From Candidatus Latescibacterota bacterium (GTDB taxonomy: Bacteria; Latescibacterota; UBA2968; UBA8231): 14,524 nt of DNA. The translations under genes and the position numbers were made by a program. Below, piece by piece: positions 1 through 14,035 of the stretch. Numbering within the stretch: the stretch's first letter is position 1; each line of letters begins with the position of its first letter. The DNA lies in contig CBDBIJ010000002.1 in the NCBI GenBank assembly GCA_965205655.1, positions 1 to 14,524 on the forward strand, read 5' to 3'. The notes beneath the pieces are model-generated. The model saw only the letters and a program-made list of their open reading frames with translations, was not told the origin of the DNA and made no database searches.

Positions 1-1
1 G

Positions 2-979
2 CCGGTTGCCGGCGCGCTTCGCGTCGTACTCCACATTGATCTGCCGCAACTGTCCGTCCACGTAGCCCGCCAACTCCTGTGGGCCGATAGCGCTGTCTGA
101 GCTCGGCTCGAGGTACAGCTCGTATCGAGCCAGCTCCTCGTTGGCCAGCATCTGGTAGAATTGGACGCCGAGCTCAAATCTCTCGTCGGCTTTTCCGACA
201 GCGTCGATCACCTGCGTCTCATACAGCTTCTCGCCGGTGATGTTCGTCACGCCCTTCCCTTTTTGCACGAACCTGATAGTCGGCGTGCTCTCGAACAAAC
301 CGGTGACAGCGACGATGTCGTTCATGTTATATCGGTAGAGCCCGGCCGGGGTCGTCACGAAGAGGTAGTACTCCCTGCCGACCTCGAGATCTGCTACACC
401 GATGAAATCCCGCCCTCCTTTTTCCCATGCATCTTTTTCGACGAATTCGAAGAAGTTTTCCTGTATCGTCGGTATTCCCTCATTCGTCTCGAGGTCGATG
501 GTGATGGTGCCGCGCACTTCACTCGAGAGATAGCCGAGCTCTACTACCTTGGTATCTCGGGGAAACCTGGGCGTGATGCTCTTCAGAGATATGGCACAGC
601 TGCCACCCGTCCAGGTGGTCACCAGCTTGATGTAGGGCCAGAAATCGGAAAAGCTGGCTTCCGTCCCGGCTGCGAGAATATCGCGCAACTCCCGAGCCCT
701 CTCTGGGTTGGGCCTCAACCTCGCGCGCAGCGAGTCTGCCGTCGCCTCATCCAGCTCATGGAGGTGCCGGCAGATTCCGGACTCGATGTCGGCGACGATA
801 TCCTCGCGGTGGCGGTTTATCGTCTCGAGCATCCTGTGAAGTGTCGATGGATTGGCAGTGCCGATGTAGGTGATATCATCGTGCTCCACCGCCAGCCGGC
901 AAATGATATAGTACTTGGTGTCGTAGCTCTCAATCGCGAAAACCTCCTTGGGCAGAACGTACTTGGCGCGGGTGAGCTG
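2..979 (-). pseudogene. GH3 (acyl-acid amido synthetase) family protein, C-terminal part, cut off from its N-terminus by IS30; runs off the window edge
   Basis: Not in the ORF track. My translation of the minus strand is open for about 326 codons: QLTRAKYVLPKEVFAIESYDTKYY...TANPST...WPYIKLVTTWTGGS...ELGYLSSEVRGTI...FFEFVE...LEVGREYYLFVTTPAGLYRYNMNDIVAVTG...ITGEKLYETQV...INVEYDAKRAGNR. YxSSE, GLYRYxxxD and GEK are GH3 hallmark motifs. Confidence 0.93.
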
Positions 980-994
980 TCGCGAGTTCAACCA

Positions 995-1028
995 GTCAAC
1001 GCAACACCTTCGTCAACGCAACACCTTC
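995..1028 (+). repeat. Perfect 17-bp tandem duplication (GTCAACGCAACACCTTC x2) at the IS30 right end
   Basis: Copies at 995-1011 and 1012-1028, read directly from the sequence. Confidence 0.97.
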
Positions 1029-2165
1029 ATTGAAGCGTTCTGCGGGTGAAACGAACCCCAACGTCTTCCGCGGGCGCTGGTTCAGTTGAAGAGCGACTCT
1101 GTTCAGGTCGGCTTGGGAGAATGGCGACAGATCGGTCTTCCTCGGGAAGTACTGTCGAAGAAGGCGATTCGTGTTCTCATTTGTGCCTCGTTGCCAGGGA
1201 CTCTGAGGATCACAGAAATACACCTCGACGTCAGTTGCGATCGAGAACTCCTTGTGCCGAGCTAGCTCCATTCCTCGATCCCAGGTAAGGGACAACCGCA
1301 CCGCGGAGGGGAGTCGTTTCACCTGGCTGATCAGCGCTCTGACAACGGTCTCGGTGTCTTTGCCGTTGAGCTTCACGAGCATCGTGAACCGAGACTGCCG
1401 CTCCACCAACGTGGCGATGTGCGTGTTGTTCGACCCCGAGATCAAGTCTCCCTCCCAGTGGCCGGGAACGGCGCGGTCCTCGATCTCGGCAGGCCACTCG
1501 CTGATGGATACGGCGTCGACGATCCGGCCTCTCGGCTGATCGCGTGTGCTTGCCTTCTTGGATCGCCGCATCATCCTTCGCGTCCGCAGATGCGCAATGA
1601 GGTCCTTGTTGAGTGCCCCGCGTGCCTGGATGAAGAGAGTTCGATAGATCGTTTCGTGGGATATCTGCATATTTCCTAAAAGCGCATACTCCCGCTTCAG
1701 CCATCCCGATATCTGCTCAGGTGACCACTTCAGGCGTAGCTTGTCCGCCACGACTCGCCGCAAACGAAGATTGGATGCGAGTCGGCAGCATTTCGGCCGG
1801 CTGGCGCGCGTCCAGGCTGCTTGGTCGGCGACGTTTGCTCGGTACCTTTGCCGCCCGCCATTGCGGGCAATCTCTCGGCTAACCGTCGAGGGTGCACGCT
1901 CAACAGCGGCCGCAATTATTCGTATCGATTTTCCCGCAGCGATACCTCGAGAGATCTCTTCACGCTCTTCCCAGCCAAGAGCCCATCGAGAGCGTCGACG
2001 CGGCATTGGTACGATGCCCCCATTGGCGGTGATGACACCATGAATCGACGCCGGATGCTTCCCGAGCGCCCGACCAATATCGCTATGCGACTGGCCGCTC
2101 TTCCATCGACGCCATACCTCCAACTTCTGTGACGCGGACAATCCTGGTCGTCCCATTTGAGCCAT
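996..2165 (-). CDS. IS30-family DDE transposase
   Basis: HTH region (EREEISRG...RAPSTVSREIARN), WSPEQI, SHETIY, GHWEGD, TWDRG.E, FCDPQSPWQRGTNENTNRLLRQYFP, LNQRPRKTLGF. The DDE triad is intact. Start placed at ATG 2165, 9 nt after AGGAG; the ORF track starts at 2174. Confidence 0.96.
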   Translation of the reverse strand: MAQMGRPGLSASQKLEVWRRWKSGQSHSDIGRALGKHPASIHGVITANGGIVPMPRRRSRWALGWEEREEISRGIAAGKSIRIIAAAVERAPSTVSREIARNGGRQRYRANVADQAAWTRASRPKCCRLASNLRLRRVVADKLRLKWSPEQISGWLKREYALLGNMQISHETIYRTLFIQARGALNKDLIAHLRTRRMMRRSKKASTRDQPRGRIVDAVSISEWPAEIEDRAVPGHWEGDLISGSNNTHIATLVERQSRFTMLVKLNGKDTETVVRALISQVKRLPSAVRLSLTWDRGMELARHKEFSIATDVEVYFCDPQSPWQRGTNENTNRLLRQYFPRKTDLSPFSQADLNRVALQLNQRPRKTLGFVSPAERFNEGVALTKVLR

Positions 2166-2228
2166 GTGCAACATCTCCTATGATTAGATTAGTGGGAAGA
2201 ATGTTGCATTGACCAATTGAATATACCC

Positions 2229-2775
2229 TGTGTTTTTTTCGTATATGTGGCCCGATGCGCTGCCGTACGGCGTTCCCGATTCCAGATGGCCATCGATGGC
2301 CGGGCTCACGAGTCCGAGGATCTTTCCGTGAAACGCCTCCGGTCTCGCCCGATACTGGATGTATGAGAACGTCTGCTGCGACCGTCTCAGATCCTTCAGT
2401 GTCTGAGCCAGCACGGGTATGTATTTTGGTTCGCCCGTGGTGCCGCTGGTCTGGTTGTATATGCACGGAAGCTCGCTCGTCAGCAGAGCCACACGCGACT
2501 TTTCCTGCCGATCGATGTAGGGTCTCAGGTCTTCGTATTCGCAGATCGGCACGCGTTTCATGTAGGAGTCGTGATCGGTGACCTCCGCAAAACCGTGTTT
2601 CTCACCGTACTCGGTGCGGGCGTTGGCGGCCATGATCGAACGCAGAGCTGCCGCCTGCGCCTGCGCCGGGTCCCTGGAGGCCTCTACGAGAGGTTCGTAC
2701 ATCGTCACCCCTATCCAGCGCATTTTGAATTTCAATAGCAGACTGATCGCTATTTGGGTGAGCGACTGCAGCGGG
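2229..2775 (-). pseudogene. GH3 family protein, N-terminal part (interrupted by IS30; probably fused to the upstream desaturase)
   Basis: DPAQAQAAALRSIMAANARTEYGEKHGF...RVPICEYEDLRPYIDR...YNQTSGTTGEPKYIP (GH3 motif I, TSGTT)...GTPYGSASGHIYE. The ORF-track tail GYIQLVNATFFPLI is read-through into the IS. Confidence 0.92.
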
Positions 2776-3667
2776 GTTTGTCGGTGTCGATGCTTCCCGC
2801 GAAGGGCGTTTTCAGCTGCGAACCGAAATCCAGCGGGTACTCTTCATTCAGCAGCCCCAACTCGTCAACGAGCCTGTCCTGCGGGTAGAAGTATGTCCCG
2901 AAGACGAGGTCCCATATGATGATGTTGTTGCCGTAGTTGCTGTTGGCTTCCATCGGCTTGCGCGAGTGGTGCCAGCGGTGGAGCTGAGGGCCGCTGATGA
3001 TGTAATTGAGCACCCCCATGCGCAGCTCGATGTTGCAGTGCTGAAAGAATCCGTTCACCGCGTAGAACACGAAGTAGAGCGCCAGCACCTCGGCGCCGAC
3101 CCCGACTGCGATGAAGGGCAGGGCGTCCATCAGAAACTGGAGTGCCTTTTCCGCCGGGTGGAAACGGCCCACGTTCACCCAGTACAGCTTCTTGGGCGAG
3201 TGGTGCACGGCGTGCAGCTTCCACAGTACCGCGTTTTCGTGGCAAAATCTGTGTAGCCAGTAGCGGAGGAAATCGGCCACCAGTATCATCAACACGACCT
3301 GGCCACCCATGGGCCAGTGGTGTGGCCACAGCTCCTTCGGCTGCAGGTCAGTAGCGCCCAGTATTTTTAGCAGGATGAGAGCCGCCAGAAAAGTCAGGAC
3401 CTTCGGCAGGATCATCTGCACCACGACCATGAAGAGGGCGTCGTTCCACACATCTTCGCGATCGGCGATCCACATTTTCAGGTGGGGGGTGTATAACTCG
3501 AAGAAGGTGATGATCGCGGCGCCCAGAATGACGGGGATGTAGGTGCACATCAACAGATGCTGTTCCCCACCACGAAGGGAATAGAACAGCCAGATGCATG
3601 TCGCTATGGCGAGTGGATAGAGTACCGGGGGCCAGTACTCGAATTTCGCCTGTCTAGTATCGCTCAT
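2750..3667 (-). CDS. Fatty acid hydroxylase / sterol desaturase family membrane di-iron enzyme
   Basis: His boxes YWLHRFCH, LWKLHAVHHS, FQHCN and PQLHRWHHS, plus NYG...WDLVFGT, and several hydrophobic segments. Confidence 0.93.
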   Translation of the reverse strand: MSDTRQAKFEYWPPVLYPLAIATCIWLFYSLRGGEQHLLMCTYIPVILGAAIITFFELYTPHLKMWIADREDVWNDALFMVVVQMILPKVLTFLAALILLKILGATDLQPKELWPHHWPMGGQVVLMILVADFLRYWLHRFCHENAVLWKLHAVHHSPKKLYWVNVGRFHPAEKALQFLMDALPFIAVGVGAEVLALYFVFYAVNGFFQHCNIELRMGVLNYIISGPQLHRWHHSRKPMEANSNYGNNIIIWDLVFGTYFYPQDRLVDELGLLNEEYPLDFGSQLKTPFAGSIDTDKPRCSRSPK

Positions 3668-3682
3668 TTGTCGAGGGAACCT

Positions 3683-3708
3683 CGCTCTTCTGTTCCGACA
3701 GAAGAGCG
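3683..3708. promoter_or_regulatory. Intra-operon hairpin (11-bp perfect stem, 4-nt loop)
   Basis: CGCTCTTCTGT-TCCG-ACAGAAGAGCG between the lipoprotein stop (3714) and the desaturase start (3667). No U-tract follows on the minus strand. Confidence 0.6.
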
Positions 3709-3713
3709 TTGCC

Positions 3714-4214
3714 CTACGCTGTTACCACCCAGGTAATCACGAGCACCCCCTCAGTGCATGGCGGAGGAATCGGCGCCGTGTAGCTCGTCTTCAGGTTGCC
3801 GAAGGTGAGCTCGGTGATCTCCCACACGAAATCCTCCGTTTCGCCCACCTCGGCGTTGCTGCGGTCCAGAATCACTTGCGTCTCGCCCTCGGAAAAGGAC
3901 CATGGTCCCGAGATTGTGTGCACGCCGTCCGGAATGCCGCAATTGCCACCCGGAAAGGTGAAGCTGTAGGTATTGTCGGACTTGAAAGTTATCGACAGCT
4001 CTTCGAATCCTGGCGGAGGCTGCCCCGGTTCTCCCTTCAGAACGAAGGTCCCGAGCGTGGCTTCGCTCACTTGCCAGGTGTGGGCGATCAGGTCCGTCCT
4101 CGTCTGCACAGCGGTGCCTGTGGCCCCCCCGTCATCGCTGCCACAGGACGAGACGCAAGCGGCTGTGAGCGCAAAACACGGGACGAACCGCCGTAGATAT
4201 CGAATGCCGGTCAT
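3714..4214 (-). CDS. Lipoprotein with a lipocalin-like beta-barrel domain
   Basis: Basic N-terminus, hydrophobic stretch and lipobox-like VSSC|GSDD. LIAHTWQV, ITFKSDNTYS, GPWSFSE and WEITELT match the pattern of bacterial lipocalin-like lipoproteins. ATGA overlap with the upstream gene. Confidence 0.7.
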   Translation of the reverse strand: MTGIRYLRRFVPCFALTAACVSSCGSDDGGATGTAVQTRTDLIAHTWQVSEATLGTFVLKGEPGQPPPGFEELSITFKSDNTYSFTFPGGNCGIPDGVHTISGPWSFSEGETQVILDRSNAEVGETEDFVWEITELTFGNLKTSYTAPIPPPCTEGVLVITWVVTA

Positions 4215-4684
4215 TTTTCCACCTCGATGGTGAGCAGTATCTGGAGATCGTCTGTCACGTGTTTTTCATCGACGTACCCCACGGTGCCTGGATTGGTGGA
4301 CACATGCTGGGCCAGGTCTGTCTGGGTTACGAACGACTTTGGCAGCACCGCTTTACCGGAGAACGCCCTGCGCAACCACAAGCGCCGCAGATCGTGGGCC
4401 TTTACGCCCAAAACCTCGTAAAACTGTTTCTGGATTTTCGGATTGGCCGAGTAGTCGACGACGATAAGCTTGGAGTCGTCTTTCCACATTCTCGTGTTCA
4501 GGGTATAAATGTCCGTCAGACGAGCGAGATCGATTTCGCCGGATGGCACCGACTTGTGCGTCACGACGGCGATGTCGAGTGGCGCGGCAATCGCGGGCCC
4601 GCTCCAGGGGGCTGCCGACAGCCAGAGCGCAGCGGCCGCGGCTCCGCAAAATCCCAGCTTCCCGCACCTTGCCCGCTCACTCAT
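4211..4684 (-). CDS. Small exported PstS-like / PBP type 2-like substrate-binding protein
   Basis: Signal peptide, IAVVTHKSVP...LTDIYTLNTRMWKD, FYEVLG, W..RAFSGKAVLP, VSTNPGTVGYVD. GAGGTG precedes ATG 4684; the alternative start is 4702. Confidence 0.8.
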   Translation of the reverse strand: MSERARCGKLGFCGAAAAALWLSAAPWSGPAIAAPLDIAVVTHKSVPSGEIDLARLTDIYTLNTRMWKDDSKLIVVDYSANPKIQKQFYEVLGVKAHDLRRLWLRRAFSGKAVLPKSFVTQTDLAQHVSTNPGTVGYVDEKHVTDDLQILLTIEVEK

Positions 4685-4708
4685 CTGCGCACCTCGAAGC
4701 ATCTGACC

Positions 4709-5941
4709 CTAGAAGATGAGGCTCAGGGCGAATGCCGTGATTGCGAGATTGCCCTCGCCATAGGGATTCTCTCGGATAGATCCGAAACGCCGCTGCAGTT
4801 TCGCCGTCATCAGATAGTTGATGCGGTAGCCCACACCGCCGTCTACAGAGTAGAACCCGGCCTTGTCGACGGAATTGGGCTGCGACGCCTCGTAAGCCTC
4901 ATTATTCATGAACCCGTAGCCGCCGTATGCGAACCAGTTGCCGGATGTCTCGTAAGTGGCGTTAAAGTAGAAGAATTGCTTGTCCAGACTCATCTCGGGG
5001 AACGGAGTGTTATCCAGATCGTGGAGAACCTTGATGTACTCACCTTCGATGCGAAAGTTCCCGAGAATGAGGGACGCGTCCGTGCCGATGCGAACCCGAG
5101 GCACATCGCCAAGGGCCGGGATGGTCGCCCACGGCAGTCTCGAAATAGATCGCTTCATAGCCTCTCGTCGGTTGTCCTTGTCCCAGGTAGTGGACAATCC
5201 CACGACGATATTTTCGTTTCCCGTGCGAAGGCCTATTCGGCCGCCCACTGCCTTGAAGGAGGTTACGTCTTCACCGGGAAAGAGATTGAAGCCGACCCCG
5301 GCGACCTCGTCCGTTCCCAGCGACTTGCTCGTATCCAGAAATGACGTCTCGGCGTTGCCCAGATGCAGTGCGTAGTCGAGCCGCAGATCTCCCACCGGCA
5401 CAGTGCCGGATACCTGAGCGAAAGCCCGCTCGGGGACGAAATCCTCGCGATCCACTTGGGCGTTCATTTGGACTTCGTAGACTACGGGCCTCATGATATA
5501 CGGAAACAGCGGCAGGCGGTTCTGGATCTCGTTCAGGTTGTTGAACGTCGGCAGCAGCAACCCGAAGCGAACGCTCAGGGCCTCGCTGCGTTCGTAATTG
5601 ACCCAACCCTCCTGCAGATTGAAAGCGCCCGATCCGATATCCGATGAGAAGGAGTTCTGGAATTCCAGATTGACGAAGGTCGTGAACCGATCTTCGAACG
5701 GCTTGTTGAGAAAGATGTTCAGCTGCTGCAGGGAGTGCGTCCGCATCTCTCCCTTCAGCGATGTCGTGTCTGGTATGGTGCGGCCCTCCGGAAACCCGGT
5801 GAAGTCGAAATCCCTCTGGTAGAACAGATTCTGCATATACCCGTAGATATGCATCTGTTCCCCCAGCTGTCCGTGGGTGGTCACCGGGACCGTGAGCAGC
5901 AGTGCGGTGATCGCCGCCGTCCGGTACGAGCGTCTCAACAT
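4709..5941 (-). CDS. Outer-membrane beta-barrel (porin-like) protein
   Basis: Signal peptide (...THG|Q), IYGY near the N-terminus, LQEGWVNY...LSVRFG, alternating amphipathic strands, C-terminal Phe (FALSLIF). Confidence 0.8.
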   Translation of the reverse strand: MLRRSYRTAAITALLLTVPVTTHGQLGEQMHIYGYMQNLFYQRDFDFTGFPEGRTIPDTTSLKGEMRTHSLQQLNIFLNKPFEDRFTTFVNLEFQNSFSSDIGSGAFNLQEGWVNYERSEALSVRFGLLLPTFNNLNEIQNRLPLFPYIMRPVVYEVQMNAQVDREDFVPERAFAQVSGTVPVGDLRLDYALHLGNAETSFLDTSKSLGTDEVAGVGFNLFPGEDVTSFKAVGGRIGLRTGNENIVVGLSTTWDKDNRREAMKRSISRLPWATIPALGDVPRVRIGTDASLILGNFRIEGEYIKVLHDLDNTPFPEMSLDKQFFYFNATYETSGNWFAYGGYGFMNNEAYEASQPNSVDKAGFYSVDGGVGYRINYLMTAKLQRRFGSIRENPYGEGNLAITAFALSLIF

Positions 5942-5957
5942 GATGTGTGCCGTTTTC

Positions 5958-7379
5958 CTAGCAACCCGTGGCTAAAGCCCCGTTTGGGAAGATTTGGGGT
6001 GGCCTGAGATTCGTGGTGCGAGTTGCCGCCAATGGCGACGAAAATCGAGCAGTGCCCGAGAGTTGAACCACGGGCGGCGACAAAGCGCGCCAAGGCGCGA
6101 AAACCTGAGTGATGAGAGACGAAATGAGGGAAAACGCCTCCCTCATACCCCTCGGAGTGCCCGCACCGAAGAGGGTGCGCATGAGGAGGCCGAAATTGCA
6201 GCCGCACACGTGAATGACGAGGCGTTTGAGGATGTTTTGTCGGCCCCGAAGAAACAGCCGTCGCATACCGCCGGTTTCGAACAGATGAGCATACGGGCGT
6301 TCGAGCAGCTCGCCGCGCTTACGCCGCAGCGCCTGCCCGCGGTTGCCGCGAATGCGTCGGCGATTGGCATACACCGCCTGTTGTGCTTCCGCTTTGTCCT
6401 TCCAATCTCGACGCCCGCGATCCGGTTCGGAAATGTAGCTGCGAATGGCACTGGCTTTGAGATCGACCAGCACCTCGTTGCTGTGATACCCCTTGTCGGT
6501 GACGACTTCCGACAACGGTTTGGGATGCAGATGCTTCCTGGCCTCGGGATCCTGCGACACGGCCTCCAAGTTCAATTCGGTTCGCACCAGCATCCACGGC
6601 AGCGATTCGGTGTCGCCTTCATCGGCACTCGGCAGACTCACGGCGACGATCGCCTGGGTGTCCATGTCCACCGCCGTCTCCACCTTGTGCGCCAGATGGG
6701 TGCGACGATCCTTCGTCTTGGTAATGCGGGCATCCGGATCGTGCGGGTGTTCCCAGTCCTTATTGGACGCTTTCTTCGGGCGCTTCTTGTCGATCCTGGC
6801 CAGATCCTCTCGCGTTGGCGTCTCGATGCCCGAGGCCTTGGCCAACTTCGTGAGAAACTCCTCGTAACTTTCGCCCGTGTCCCGGCGCACGATGCTGCGC
6901 ATGGCGGCGTTGGCATCCAGCGTCGTGGCGTCGACGCCCAGCGTCTTCCCCTTCAGCAGGTTCGATGTGGCCAGCACCTTCAACACCCACTCGAAGACCT
7001 CATGATGCGTCTGGAAGTCGATCAGCCGGCGCGTGCGAGACACCGTCGAATGATCGGGCGTAGCCTTGTCGAGCTCGTAGCCGAGGAATGCCCGCAACGA
7101 CAGCGAATCGGCGACGCGCCAGGCGATCTCACGCTCCGAGTCGATGCCCTCGAAATAGCCGATCATGAGCAGGCGGAAATAGACCCCGGGCGGGATGCCG
7201 GGCCGACCGGCGCCCTCGGCGTAAAACGTCGTGCACCGCTCTTCCACAAACTCGTCGAATCCGTGCTTGTCCAGCACCTCATTCAATCTCTTGTAAAAAG
7301 GATGTCCCGGAGCCCTCAGGTGCTGCGTCGCCACCCACAGCTGAGCTTGGCTCGCGCGCTTCCGTTTTCCCAACGCCAT
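5958..7379 (-). CDS. DDE transposase (DUF772-type N-terminus plus DDE domain; IS1182/IS5-like)
   Basis: GRPGIPP...LLMIGYFEGIDSERE, PDHSTVSRTR, GVDATTLDANAA, DPDARI, TDKGYHS, R...LERPYAH. GGGGAG precedes the ATG. Confidence 0.93.
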   Translation of the reverse strand: MALGKRKRASQAQLWVATQHLRAPGHPFYKRLNEVLDKHGFDEFVEERCTTFYAEGAGRPGIPPGVYFRLLMIGYFEGIDSEREIAWRVADSLSLRAFLGYELDKATPDHSTVSRTRRLIDFQTHHEVFEWVLKVLATSNLLKGKTLGVDATTLDANAAMRSIVRRDTGESYEEFLTKLAKASGIETPTREDLARIDKKRPKKASNKDWEHPHDPDARITKTKDRRTHLAHKVETAVDMDTQAIVAVSLPSADEGDTESLPWMLVRTELNLEAVSQDPEARKHLHPKPLSEVVTDKGYHSNEVLVDLKASAIRSYISEPDRGRRDWKDKAEAQQAVYANRRRIRGNRGQALRRKRGELLERPYAHLFETGGMRRLFLRGRQNILKRLVIHVCGCNFGLLMRTLFGAGTPRGMREAFSLISSLITQVFAPWRALSPPVVQLSGTARFSSPLAATRTTNLRPPQIFPNGALATGC

Positions 7380-7471
7380 GACAGCATCTCCCCTGCAAGG
7401 TTGATGCTCAAAGGTAAGGAGAGGCTCCTCATCCGCGCCGCAAGAAAATCACCGACTTTCACCACAGGCTG
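5962..7471 (-). mobile_element. IS1182/IS5-like insertion sequence, 1510 bp, CTAG target duplication
   Basis: Terminal inverted repeats CAACCCGTGGCTAAAG (5962-5977) and CAGCCTGTGGTGAAAG (minus strand, 7471-7456), 12/16 identical. CTAG directly flanks both ends (5958-5961, 7472-7475). Confidence 0.9.
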
Positions 7472-7614
7472 CTAGAGAAAAGGATAAGCAGACGACGCCC
7501 TTCGCCCAAGCCCGGTGATGGCTATTCGATATGACTCGGCCATAGGTCGGTAAACCTACCTCTTTCTATATTATCCGCCCATTCCTCTCTTACGACACGG
7601 GAACCGGAGGCGAC

Positions 7615-13023: not shown

Positions 13024-13694
13024 GGGGTGCGCAGTCTTTCGATCGTGAGTTGCCGCCCGGAATCCACCTGTATGAGAATTTCGGCGTTCGCTTCGGAGGG
13101 GTTCACGTTGCTCTCGGTATCGGGCAGAATTCCCTCTGCCCAGTGTCTTTCCATGTCATCCGAACTCTTGCTCACTGGTTTCTCCGACTCTTGCTGCAAC
13201 CTCCAGCGCTTGCAGTCCTCCTCCCGTGCCTTCATGAAAAGCGGCAGATCGACGAACTCCAGAAACGATCCGAGTGCCGGATCGCTGCTGACGGCGTAGA
13301 GCCCCTCGAAGATGACGACATGGATACCGTCGAGGGAGAGCTGCCAGTCGTAGAGATCCTTGGTAGGTTTGCGGCGATATCGTTGCGTGCGGACGGATGT
13401 TTCACCGGACTTGATGGCGGTGAGAACCCGGCGCGCCTCATCCAGTCGCAGGTGGTGCGGGCCCCACTCCCCGAGATGGCGGCGCTCCTCGGGTGCCTTG
13501 AAGAAGTCGTCCGCACGGATGAGCAGTGCGTTGAATCGCGCCGTGTTCAGTCGATCTTGCAGGGCAGCGGCGAAGGTGGATTTTCCGACACCTGAACGCC
13601 CGCCGACGCCGATCACGTATGGGATGTTATCCGCATGCCGCGTGAGGGCATCCTCGACATGCTTCCACAGCTGTTCGGGAACCCCCTCCGTCAC
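13020..13694 (-). CDS. Uridine kinase / phosphoribulokinase-like P-loop kinase
   Basis: VIGVGGRSGVGKST (Walker A), ADDFF, VVIFEGLYA, and RLQQE in the lid region. GTGA overlap with the upstream gene. Confidence 0.8.
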   Translation of the reverse strand: MTEGVPEQLWKHVEDALTRHADNIPYVIGVGGRSGVGKSTFAAALQDRLNTARFNALLIRADDFFKAPEERRHLGEWGPHHLRLDEARRVLTAIKSGETSVRTQRYRRKPTKDLYDWQLSLDGIHVVIFEGLYAVSSDPALGSFLEFVDLPLFMKAREEDCKRWRLQQESEKPVSKSSDDMERHWAEGILPDTESNVNPSEANAEILIQVDSGRQLTIERLRTP

Positions 13695-13942
13695 TCAGAT
13701 CCACCGCGCCCACTCTCCTGCGGAGGCAGCTGAGCAGCGTCCTCAGTTGATCGAGGACCGTCCTCGGACTCGCTCGTCGAGTCGGGACTGCTGTGCCACA
13801 GTTCGTCGAGGCGATCAATGGCCTCTTCGGCGGAATTCGAGTTCGTGTATTGCTCGCCCAGGGACAGGTAGTAGGCGCGAGCGCTGTCGATGTTACCGAA
13901 CTGCTCATAGGATCGCGCGATGAAGAGGCGGCTGGTCACCAT
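13691..13942 (-). CDS. Small TPR-like protein with an acidic disordered tail
   Basis: AAGGAGG precedes ATG 13942. LFIARSYEQFGNIDSARAYYLSLGEQYTNS..AEEA fits a single TPR. The true start may be 14025 if a frameshift is present. Confidence 0.55.
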   Translation of the reverse strand: MVTSRLFIARSYEQFGNIDSARAYYLSLGEQYTNSNSAEEAIDRLDELWHSSPDSTSESEDGPRSTEDAAQLPPQESGRGGSE

Positions 13943-14035
13943 TGCACGCCTCCTTGGTTTCGGGACTGGAAACATGTGAGGGGGCTCTGCGCCGCCTTGA
14001 GATCATCAGTCAGTGAGACACGCATCGTTGCACTC

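Follow-up and report, generated by a model that had tools for sequence, protein, structure and literature searches.

The closest described relatives of the locus considered here are enzymes of bacterial amino-lipid synthesis. OlsH (Sinac_1599), the GH3-like lyso-ornithine lipid synthetase of Singulisphaera acidiphila, uses ATP to join a free fatty acid to ornithine, forming N-acyl ornithine; the available text of the 2025 report describes it as using C14–C18 fatty acids and as needing its motif-I serine, S115, and leaves the substrates of other bacterial GH3 proteins open (PMC12493201). OlsE, as presented in the available portion of its source, hydroxylates C4 of the ornithine-lipid head group in Rhizobium tropici and Agrobacterium (PMC12971839). 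OlsH is the one bacterial GH3 that we found characterized in print. The terms "fusion," "fused," "hydroxylase," and "desaturase" have zero occurrences in the main text of the OlsH paper, the supplements of which could list fused homologs (PMC12493201).

The stretch of DNA analyzed here (the window) is the whole of one contig from a Candidatus Latescibacterota genome (G000:C2:1-14524; 14,524 nucleotides), and its minus strand carries an OlsE-like hydroxylase ORF followed by GH3 sequence in two pieces (Table 1). That the hydroxylase and GH3 ORFs descend from one ancestral fusion gene is close to certain. We read the window copy as a pseudogene of a single 864-aa gene, broken by one base lost in the linker and by an IS30-family element in the GH3 half; this reading and the mechanism proposed below for the intact protein, taken together, have a probability of roughly 60%. 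The earlier note on this DNA had proposed that one missing base splits a fusion protein of more than 800 aa. The ancestral single chain, of about 860 aa, stands, but the IS30 element, absent from that note, cuts the GH3 half as well. One added base would not yield a protein of that size here, because the element interrupts GH3 and the contig stops at fusion codon 806 of 864, 58 codons short. No uninterrupted fusion frame was found in this genome, the frame being broken at both lesions; since the IS30 element also splits the GH3 half, the fusion protein is not made in this genome. The window copy is very probably non-functional as a fusion, and a stand-alone hydroxylase is at most what it could make.

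Table 1. Features of the hydroxylase–GH3 locus, in window positions
Feature	Position	Strand	Basis
OlsE-like membrane di-iron hydroxylase ORF, 305 aa	2750..3667	-	Pfam FA_hydroxylase, 108.5 bits
Single lost base, linker codon L298 (A on +, T on the coding strand)	2775..2776	-	Present in X2, X3, and X4; absent from X1
Fusion residues 299–478: linker helix and N-terminal part of GH3	2235..2774	-	Pfam GH3, 126 bits; P0140 alignment
In-frame ATG 2702 (M323) with Shine–Dalgarno (SD)-like stretch upstream	2700..2722	-	-6.5 kcal/mol
IS30-family element, 1247 bp, in GH3 between codons 478 and 481	981..2227	-	NCBIfam IS30, 284 bits (cut-off 80)
Fusion residues 481–806: GH3 motifs II and III, GH3_M, start of GH3_C	1..979	-	Pfam

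The hydroxylase ORF consists of fusion codons 1–297, then eight out-of-frame residues (PRCSRSPK) and a stop; its C-terminus reads ...TPFAGSIDTDKPRCSRSPK (3667-2750, minus strand), with the tail IDTDKPRCSRSPK at 2750. It is 99.3% identical to residues 1–297 of P0140, an intact 864-aa allele, and shares a 90% cluster with it. The His boxes are complete (H139/H143, H152/H155/H156, H210, H230/H233/H234), and the HxxxH, HxxHH, and HxxHH di-iron motifs of the fatty acid hydroxylase/sterol desaturase superfamily are present, as they are in 107/107 sequences of alignment A1. The NCBIfam OlsE model scores 197.9 bits against this ORF (E 2e-58), below its cut-off of 475, and matches over nearly its whole length (residues 11–290 of 293 model positions). 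In the remaining pieces, Pfam places GH3 at positions 5–159 of the second ORF, and GH3 161–290 with GH3_M and part of GH3_C on the third (2-991), which is 96.9% identical to P0140 481–806 and is cut by the contig end. The GH3 fold is accompanied by all three nucleotide motifs: motif I (TSGTTGEPK) at 2450-2424 on the minus strand, and motifs II (YLSSE) and III (GLYRYNMND) in the third piece. All three are conserved in the family and match those given for AtGH3.11 in the available text of PMC12493201. The same genome contains a second, distant gene of the fatty acid hydroxylase family (G000:C68:3849-4568; 28–31% identity).

The earlier note had suggested a search for single-chain homologs carrying both domains, and had named consistently separate genes among close homologs as evidence against a fusion; intact single chains were found. 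With the hydroxylase ORF as query and proteins limited to 535–2000 aa, 119 of the 120 best long homologs (of 591) carry PF04116 and PF03321 in one chain, most of them 840–880 aa long. Given that length limit, the search establishes the existence and closeness of fusions, but not their predominance. These counts use precomputed Pfam labels; a strict motif pattern was set aside, having matched only 83/120 homologs. Close homologs have the architecture PF04116+PF03321+PF23571+PF23572 at about 860 aa. P0140 is 97–99% identical to the window's outer pieces, and P0001 (858 aa), from a cluster with a member named Ca. Latescibacterota, is 85%, 75%, and 79% identical to the three window pieces. The fusion also occurs without an internal stop in 5 of 60 related genomes, these five being of the same family, and the ESM Atlas has two clusters (57 and 98 members) in which both domain families stand at 100%. 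Homologs bear names such as Gracilimonas, Lentisphaera profundi, Rubinisphaera margarita, and Kaarinaea lacus. The intact fusion thus exists in near-identical strains and, by tree labels, in many phyla. Literature searches, from which subscription journals were largely missing, found no paper on the fusion or its gene cassette: the architecture is already visible in databases, and the family is uncharacterized.

An AlphaFold2 model of P0140 (107 sequences) reached a pLDDT of 92.2 and a pTM of 0.88, the latter value suggesting a defined domain arrangement for the chain of 300 + 560 residues. The linker is ordered in the model, with linker blocks at pLDDT 94–96 and residues 303–332 forming one helix. 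An amphipathic membrane helix at 300–332 was considered and is not claimed, the moment being weak (0.17–0.36). The best fold matches are plant GH3s, with GH3.15 (6AVH) at an rmsd of 2.8 Å over 565 columns; no hydroxylase structure is among the fold matches listed. The description of the protein as membrane-anchored and bifunctional, offered before any of these comparisons, fits the domains and the predicted structure.

Covalent linkage of the two domains varies among relatives. The 78 loci compared come from one-per-species genomes. A fused query had led to 148 confirmed stretches, and the best 80 of these supplied the loci; four further loci of the 60-genome survey are excluded from the count. 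In 36 loci the domains are fused across the linker, in 40 they are adjacent separate genes, and 2 loci show one domain. With 40/78 loci split, the covalent link is therefore dispensable. The substrate channeling that the earlier note had raised may suit the fixed domain arrangement predicted by the model, but it would not depend on the two halves being one chain in such relatives. At 35 of the 40 split junctions, those examined, the hydroxylase stops 3–23 residues after the invariant Pro288 (17 in the window), often in a four-base stop/start overlap; 34/35 split GH3s, judged by eye, start early enough to include most of helix 303–332. On a midpoint-rooted FastTree phylogeny of 71 rows, which omits the partial or broken loci L023, L031, L033, L041, L057, L070, L086, and L097, fused and split states change at least four times; the direction of change is inferred for nested cases only. 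One such case is L062, a split locus nested with full support among fused rows and 80.5% identical in DNA to the fused L034. A single base is missing there too, at the codons that are hit in the window, giving a GTGA overlap. Taken together with the position of split ends after Pro288, this places the window lesion on the natural seam of the family. The window provides strain-level proof that what looks like two genes was once a fusion, and it documents, at the level of strains, both the precise lesion and a natural fission that matches it. It is also a caution that lesions can underlie split annotations in assemblies of this kind.

The neighborhood of the fusion is partly conserved. Downstream of it, 71/78 loci have an enolase-superfamily gene of about 370 aa; of the seven loci without it, five reach a contig edge and one (L074) has a GH3–enolase fusion, and the homolog P0048 is a triple fusion of hydroxylase, GH3, and enolase. 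The KxK motif and metal ligands (K163/K165/D192/E218) are kept in 63/63 full-length enolase sequences, and the position of the second catalytic lysine is arginine in 62/62. According to the available text on NSAR/OSBS enzymes, K163 alone serves the OSBS reaction and racemase activity also needs K263 (PMC12006748); an Arg-type enzyme is therefore more likely to eliminate than to racemize. A close ortholog of this gene was not found in the window's genome (matches of only 22–30%, the best at 25–30%), which is 84% complete and in which the contig ends inside GH3. Upstream of the fusion, a 150-aa membrane protein is encoded in 28/78 loci. The four-TM cassette protein has no Pfam match, its ESM Atlas clusters are unnamed, and a search with one query did not find it in G000. 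A CocE/NonD hydrolase is near the fusion in 14/78 loci.

Several loci carry additional genes. In the Caldithrix locus L031 (5911-10514), a stand-alone GH3 and a stand-alone fatty acid hydroxylase lie just upstream of the four-TM gene and the fusion, making two GH3/hydroxylase pairs in tandem. In the Poribacteria loci L075–L077, genes for a second hydroxylase and for a CocE/NonD protein follow downstream. Genes for a cytochrome P450 and a CatA-like acyltransferase lie upstream of the fusion in L030, L043, L047, L048, L053, L067, L073, and L087, and such upstream additions in Bacteroidota/Balneolota, sometimes with a methyltransferase, form a longer tailoring operon.

By analogy with these characterized systems, the GH3 half of the intact fusion would first adenylate a fatty acid with ATP and Mg and then couple an amino acid to it, in the manner of OlsH. 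The tethered OlsE-like half would act next on the resulting N-acyl amino acid in the membrane and hydroxylate it, most likely at the head group, using O2 and reduced ferredoxin or cytochrome. In relatives, the neighboring enolase-superfamily enzyme would remove the alpha-proton of the free carboxylate, and given the arginine in place of its second catalytic lysine, a one-base elimination would be likelier than racemization. A modified amino lipid would result, and fusion would keep the ligase at the membrane beside the hydroxylase. The only NCBIfam matches of the fusion are OlsE and OlsH, both amino-lipid enzymes and both far below cut-off (80 bits against 620 for OlsH and the GH3 half), and on this analogy we lean slightly toward an amino-lipid product. 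A bolder version is doubtful: that handover from the ligase to the di-iron site within one chain, with dehydration by the Arg-type enolase, constitutes an undescribed dehydro-amino-acid lipid pathway, in which the linker codons act as a reversible point of fusion and fission across phyla and the window records one fission event there, resolved to a single base in one strain.

A possible, if unlikely, alternative is that the acid conjugated by the intact enzyme is small or aromatic, as with plant GH3s, and that the product is a secreted signal or secondary metabolite rather than a membrane lipid. The GH3 half scores 114 bits against single plant GH3 sequences, above its score with the OlsH model (the two values come from different searches), and a small-acid substrate is therefore possible. 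The best solved relatives are indeed plant GH3s acting on auxin, jasmonate, and benzoates, and the variable neighbors (P450, methyltransferase, CatA-like acyltransferase, PhyH) resemble those of tailoring clusters. However, the hydroxylase partner is integral to the membrane, and the curated model closest to it, OlsE, matches over nearly its full length; the 78 loci, moreover, share no conserved exporter. The characterized bacterial GH3 takes C14–C18 fatty acids in the available account (PMC12493201).

At the window copy itself, the lesion in the linker can be followed base by base. The observation that the GH3 frame stays open upstream of its annotated start was correct: it is open from 2843 (after a TGA stop at 2844-2846), reads ...QTPLQSLTQIAISLLLKFKMRW, and overlaps the hydroxylase tail, continuing on the minus strand as ...QTPLQSLTQIAISLLLKFKMRWIGVTMYEPL... 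into the GH3 domain. The residues upstream of the GH3 start, PLQSLTQIAISLLLKFKMRW, are identical in P0140, and the overlap is thus not a product of chance. Shine–Dalgarno pairing at TTG 2735 and ATG 2723 is -0.2 and +0.4 kcal/mol, in agreement with the absence of a ribosome-binding site proposed for both, and GGGG is indeed present at 2773-2776. DNA alignment to locus L021 shows that a single lost base accounts for the shift. The base had been proposed to be a fifth C of the C4 run, and this was wrong: contigs of X2, X3, and X4 carry an A behind 2775 on the plus strand. As the missing base is an A inside the run, the lesion is not a homopolymer slip. The restored frame reads K297–L298–P299 (K-L-P-L-Q), as in the DKLPLQ of P0139 and P0140.

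These comparisons use contigs, not raw reads, of four public runs (X1–X4, from three studies) aligned to window positions 1–4300. X1, which may be the source run, shows the deletion as well as both IS junctions; its record over 2207-3215 shows 0 differences and 0 gaps, at a depth of 3.2. None of the four runs shows one lesion without the other at both sites. We consider it likely that the deletion is real and not an assembly error. Were it an error, which is unlikely, the gene of this strain would be broken by the IS30 element alone. Errors or decay do appear elsewhere in the genome: frameshifts occur in 5 of 46 ortholog-like G000 test genes relative to a same-family genome (about 0.8 per 10 kb), mostly as single non-homopolymer bases, and one further gene has a stop, indicating that decay or assembly error is common here. 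X1, if it is the source run, also has a depth of only 3.2 at this point. Against an error, the X1 contig was assembled independently and reproduces the deletion with no other letter changed. At 3254, where the window has a synonymous base of its own, all four runs, X1 included, read C, one control suggesting that window errors are not reproduced in X1. The slip is absent from X2–X4 and is therefore not a context artifact common to all runs; further, a gene already cut by an IS element is free to decay.

For this ortholog test, 20 stretches of one same-family genome supplied 268 query ORFs, and 46 passed the filter (55% identity, 70% cover). Of four "stop" flags, three were dropped as artifacts of over-long or antisense query ORFs. 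The affected sites are at G000:C110 ~5400, C58 ~59380, C45 ~18350 and ~33260, C17 ~46200, and C4 4335-5411. Some of the broken genes are presumably housekeeping genes (hemL-, skp-, and hisC-like); breaks in these apparent housekeeping genes are either assembly errors or decay. An indel-rate bound from IS copies (37 copies totaling 49.7 kb, among them the two of the window, with 8 gap openings) was too loose to exclude error.

A real deletion could also be a functional fission, freeing a working hydroxylase and, until the IS element inserted, also a re-initiated GH3, as in the naturally split operons. The window's hydroxylase end lies within the range of the 35 split junctions past Pro288, the one-base loss and GTGA overlap of L062 lie at the same codons in a locus nesting in a fused clade, and an SD-like site precedes ATG 2702. 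Yet a start at 2702 would drop helix 303–332, mostly kept by 34/35 split GH3s, and the IS30 element cuts GH3 regardless. M323 is not conserved among the 107 fusions, and ATG 2702, a possible internal start, is probably incidental. In sister strains, too, there are hints that the hydroxylase half breaks: P0139 (671 aa, 99% identical) has an intact linker and no IS element and starts at residue 194, with the first 193 residues absent, which may be an independent break in this half, and X4 has two added bases at 3117-3119 (depth 2.5), which would match such a break in P0139. We regard a functional fission as improbable. A programmed frameshift or phase-variable switch at the C4 run between fused and split forms is highly improbable: the shift does fall exactly in the linker, and the two states interchange at least four times on the tree, but the four-base run is short, its codons vary among the 107 fusions, and the IS30 element cuts GH3 downstream. 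The phase-variable homopolymer version was largely refuted by the intact allele, which has a different base inside the run and not a longer run.

The other lesion of the pseudogene is the IS insertion. The IS30 element has a transposase ORF (996-2174), 26-bp imperfect terminal inverted repeats (981-1006, 2202-2227), and a short target duplication, as is expected of its family, and its ends are fixed by 20 full-length copies. CTGT flanks it on both sides (977-980, 2228-2231), a repeat of 4 bp; 14/20 full-length copies have flanking repeats of 2–3 bp. Both junctions are present in X1 contigs, and X2 and X3 are IS-free, joining 977 to 2234 or 2239. The site has been remodeled: removal of the element and one CTGT leaves 5 letters, compared with 7 in X2, and a clean excision would therefore not restore the frame. 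It is possible that a donor flank was carried along, or that copies recombined. The right flank (2228-2239), CTGTGTTTT, equals the right flank of the IS30 copy on G000:C7 ~20825-22087.

Other IS features were also recorded. A 17-bp tandem duplication at 995-1028 in the end of the element overlaps the inverted repeat as well as the region of the transposase stop, and is absent from the IS contig of X3. Across the genome there are 23 near-full IS30 and 14 IS1182-family copies, 98–100% identical and amounting to 1.4% of the assembly, which suggests recent bursts of IS expansion and perhaps early genome decay. Several copies are themselves interrupted by other insertions. One IS1182-family element, with CTAG-containing ends, lies at 5957-7475, directly upstream of a 410-aa ORF (start 5941), and may have displaced the promoter of its operon.

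That operon comprises three tightly packed genes on the minus strand (3714-5941; 410, 163, and 166 aa). The 166-aa product is a lipocalin-like lipoprotein; the other two are without Pfam or NCBIfam matches, and we take the 410-aa product to be porin-like and the 163-aa product to be periplasmic binding-like. These genes are absent from all related loci compared and are therefore not part of the cassette. X3 and X4 have single-base indels relative to the window at 3746 and 4120. A 94-aa ORF (13691-13975, minus strand), right after a DUF6807 gene, is possibly a deletion remnant; to us it looks like the tail of a TPR-type protein.

The window copy, a pseudogene on the preferred reading, matters less in itself than the family, which is a testable target: an OlsE-like hydroxylase and a GH3 kept in one chain beside an unusual enolase across many phyla point to a candidate new lipid, and one gene would suffice for the test. 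Plant GH3s (JAR1/GH3.11, GH3.5, GH3.12/PBS3, GH3.15) share the fold and motifs (E 3e-32 by sequence), at about 20% identity, and are soluble, hormone-conjugating enzymes without a membrane domain. The enolase found in relatives shares KxK and three metal ligands with the MLE subgroup (dipeptide epimerases, NSAR/OSBS; E 2e-22), but differs in having arginine for the second catalytic lysine and in falling below all NCBIfam cut-offs. OlsF, a bifunctional ornithine lipid synthase in the available description, likewise performs two consecutive amino-lipid steps in one chain; unlike the fusion, it does so with two acyltransferase domains unrelated to GH3s or di-iron hydroxylases (PMC12971839). A gene of the OlsB type (PF13444) was not found in this 84%-complete genome.

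OlsE belongs to the same di-iron fatty acid hydroxylase superfamily as the N-terminal half, whose His boxes are intact and whose score is below the OlsE cut-off; OlsE itself modifies ornithine lipids and, as available in its source, has no GH3 link (PMC12971839). OlsH provides the precedent for ATP-dependent ligation of a fatty acid and an amino acid, and shares the bacterial GH3 fold and the three nucleotide motifs, its motif-I serine corresponding to S408 here (105/107 sequences). In the available text it is a soluble, stand-alone protein of 526 aa in an operon with OlsG and OlsI (PMC12493201), whereas the fusion has a membrane hydroxylase as partner and an enolase-superfamily gene as neighbor. 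The OlsH/OlsI/OlsG operon arrangement was not found around the fusion: an OlsI-like alpha/beta-hydrolase is not fixed in the cassette, in which the CocE/NonD gene occurs at 14/78 loci, OlsI itself not having been a query. By analogy, the fusion would work like an OlsH/OlsE-type amino-lipid module, while by score and operon it is a member of neither family.
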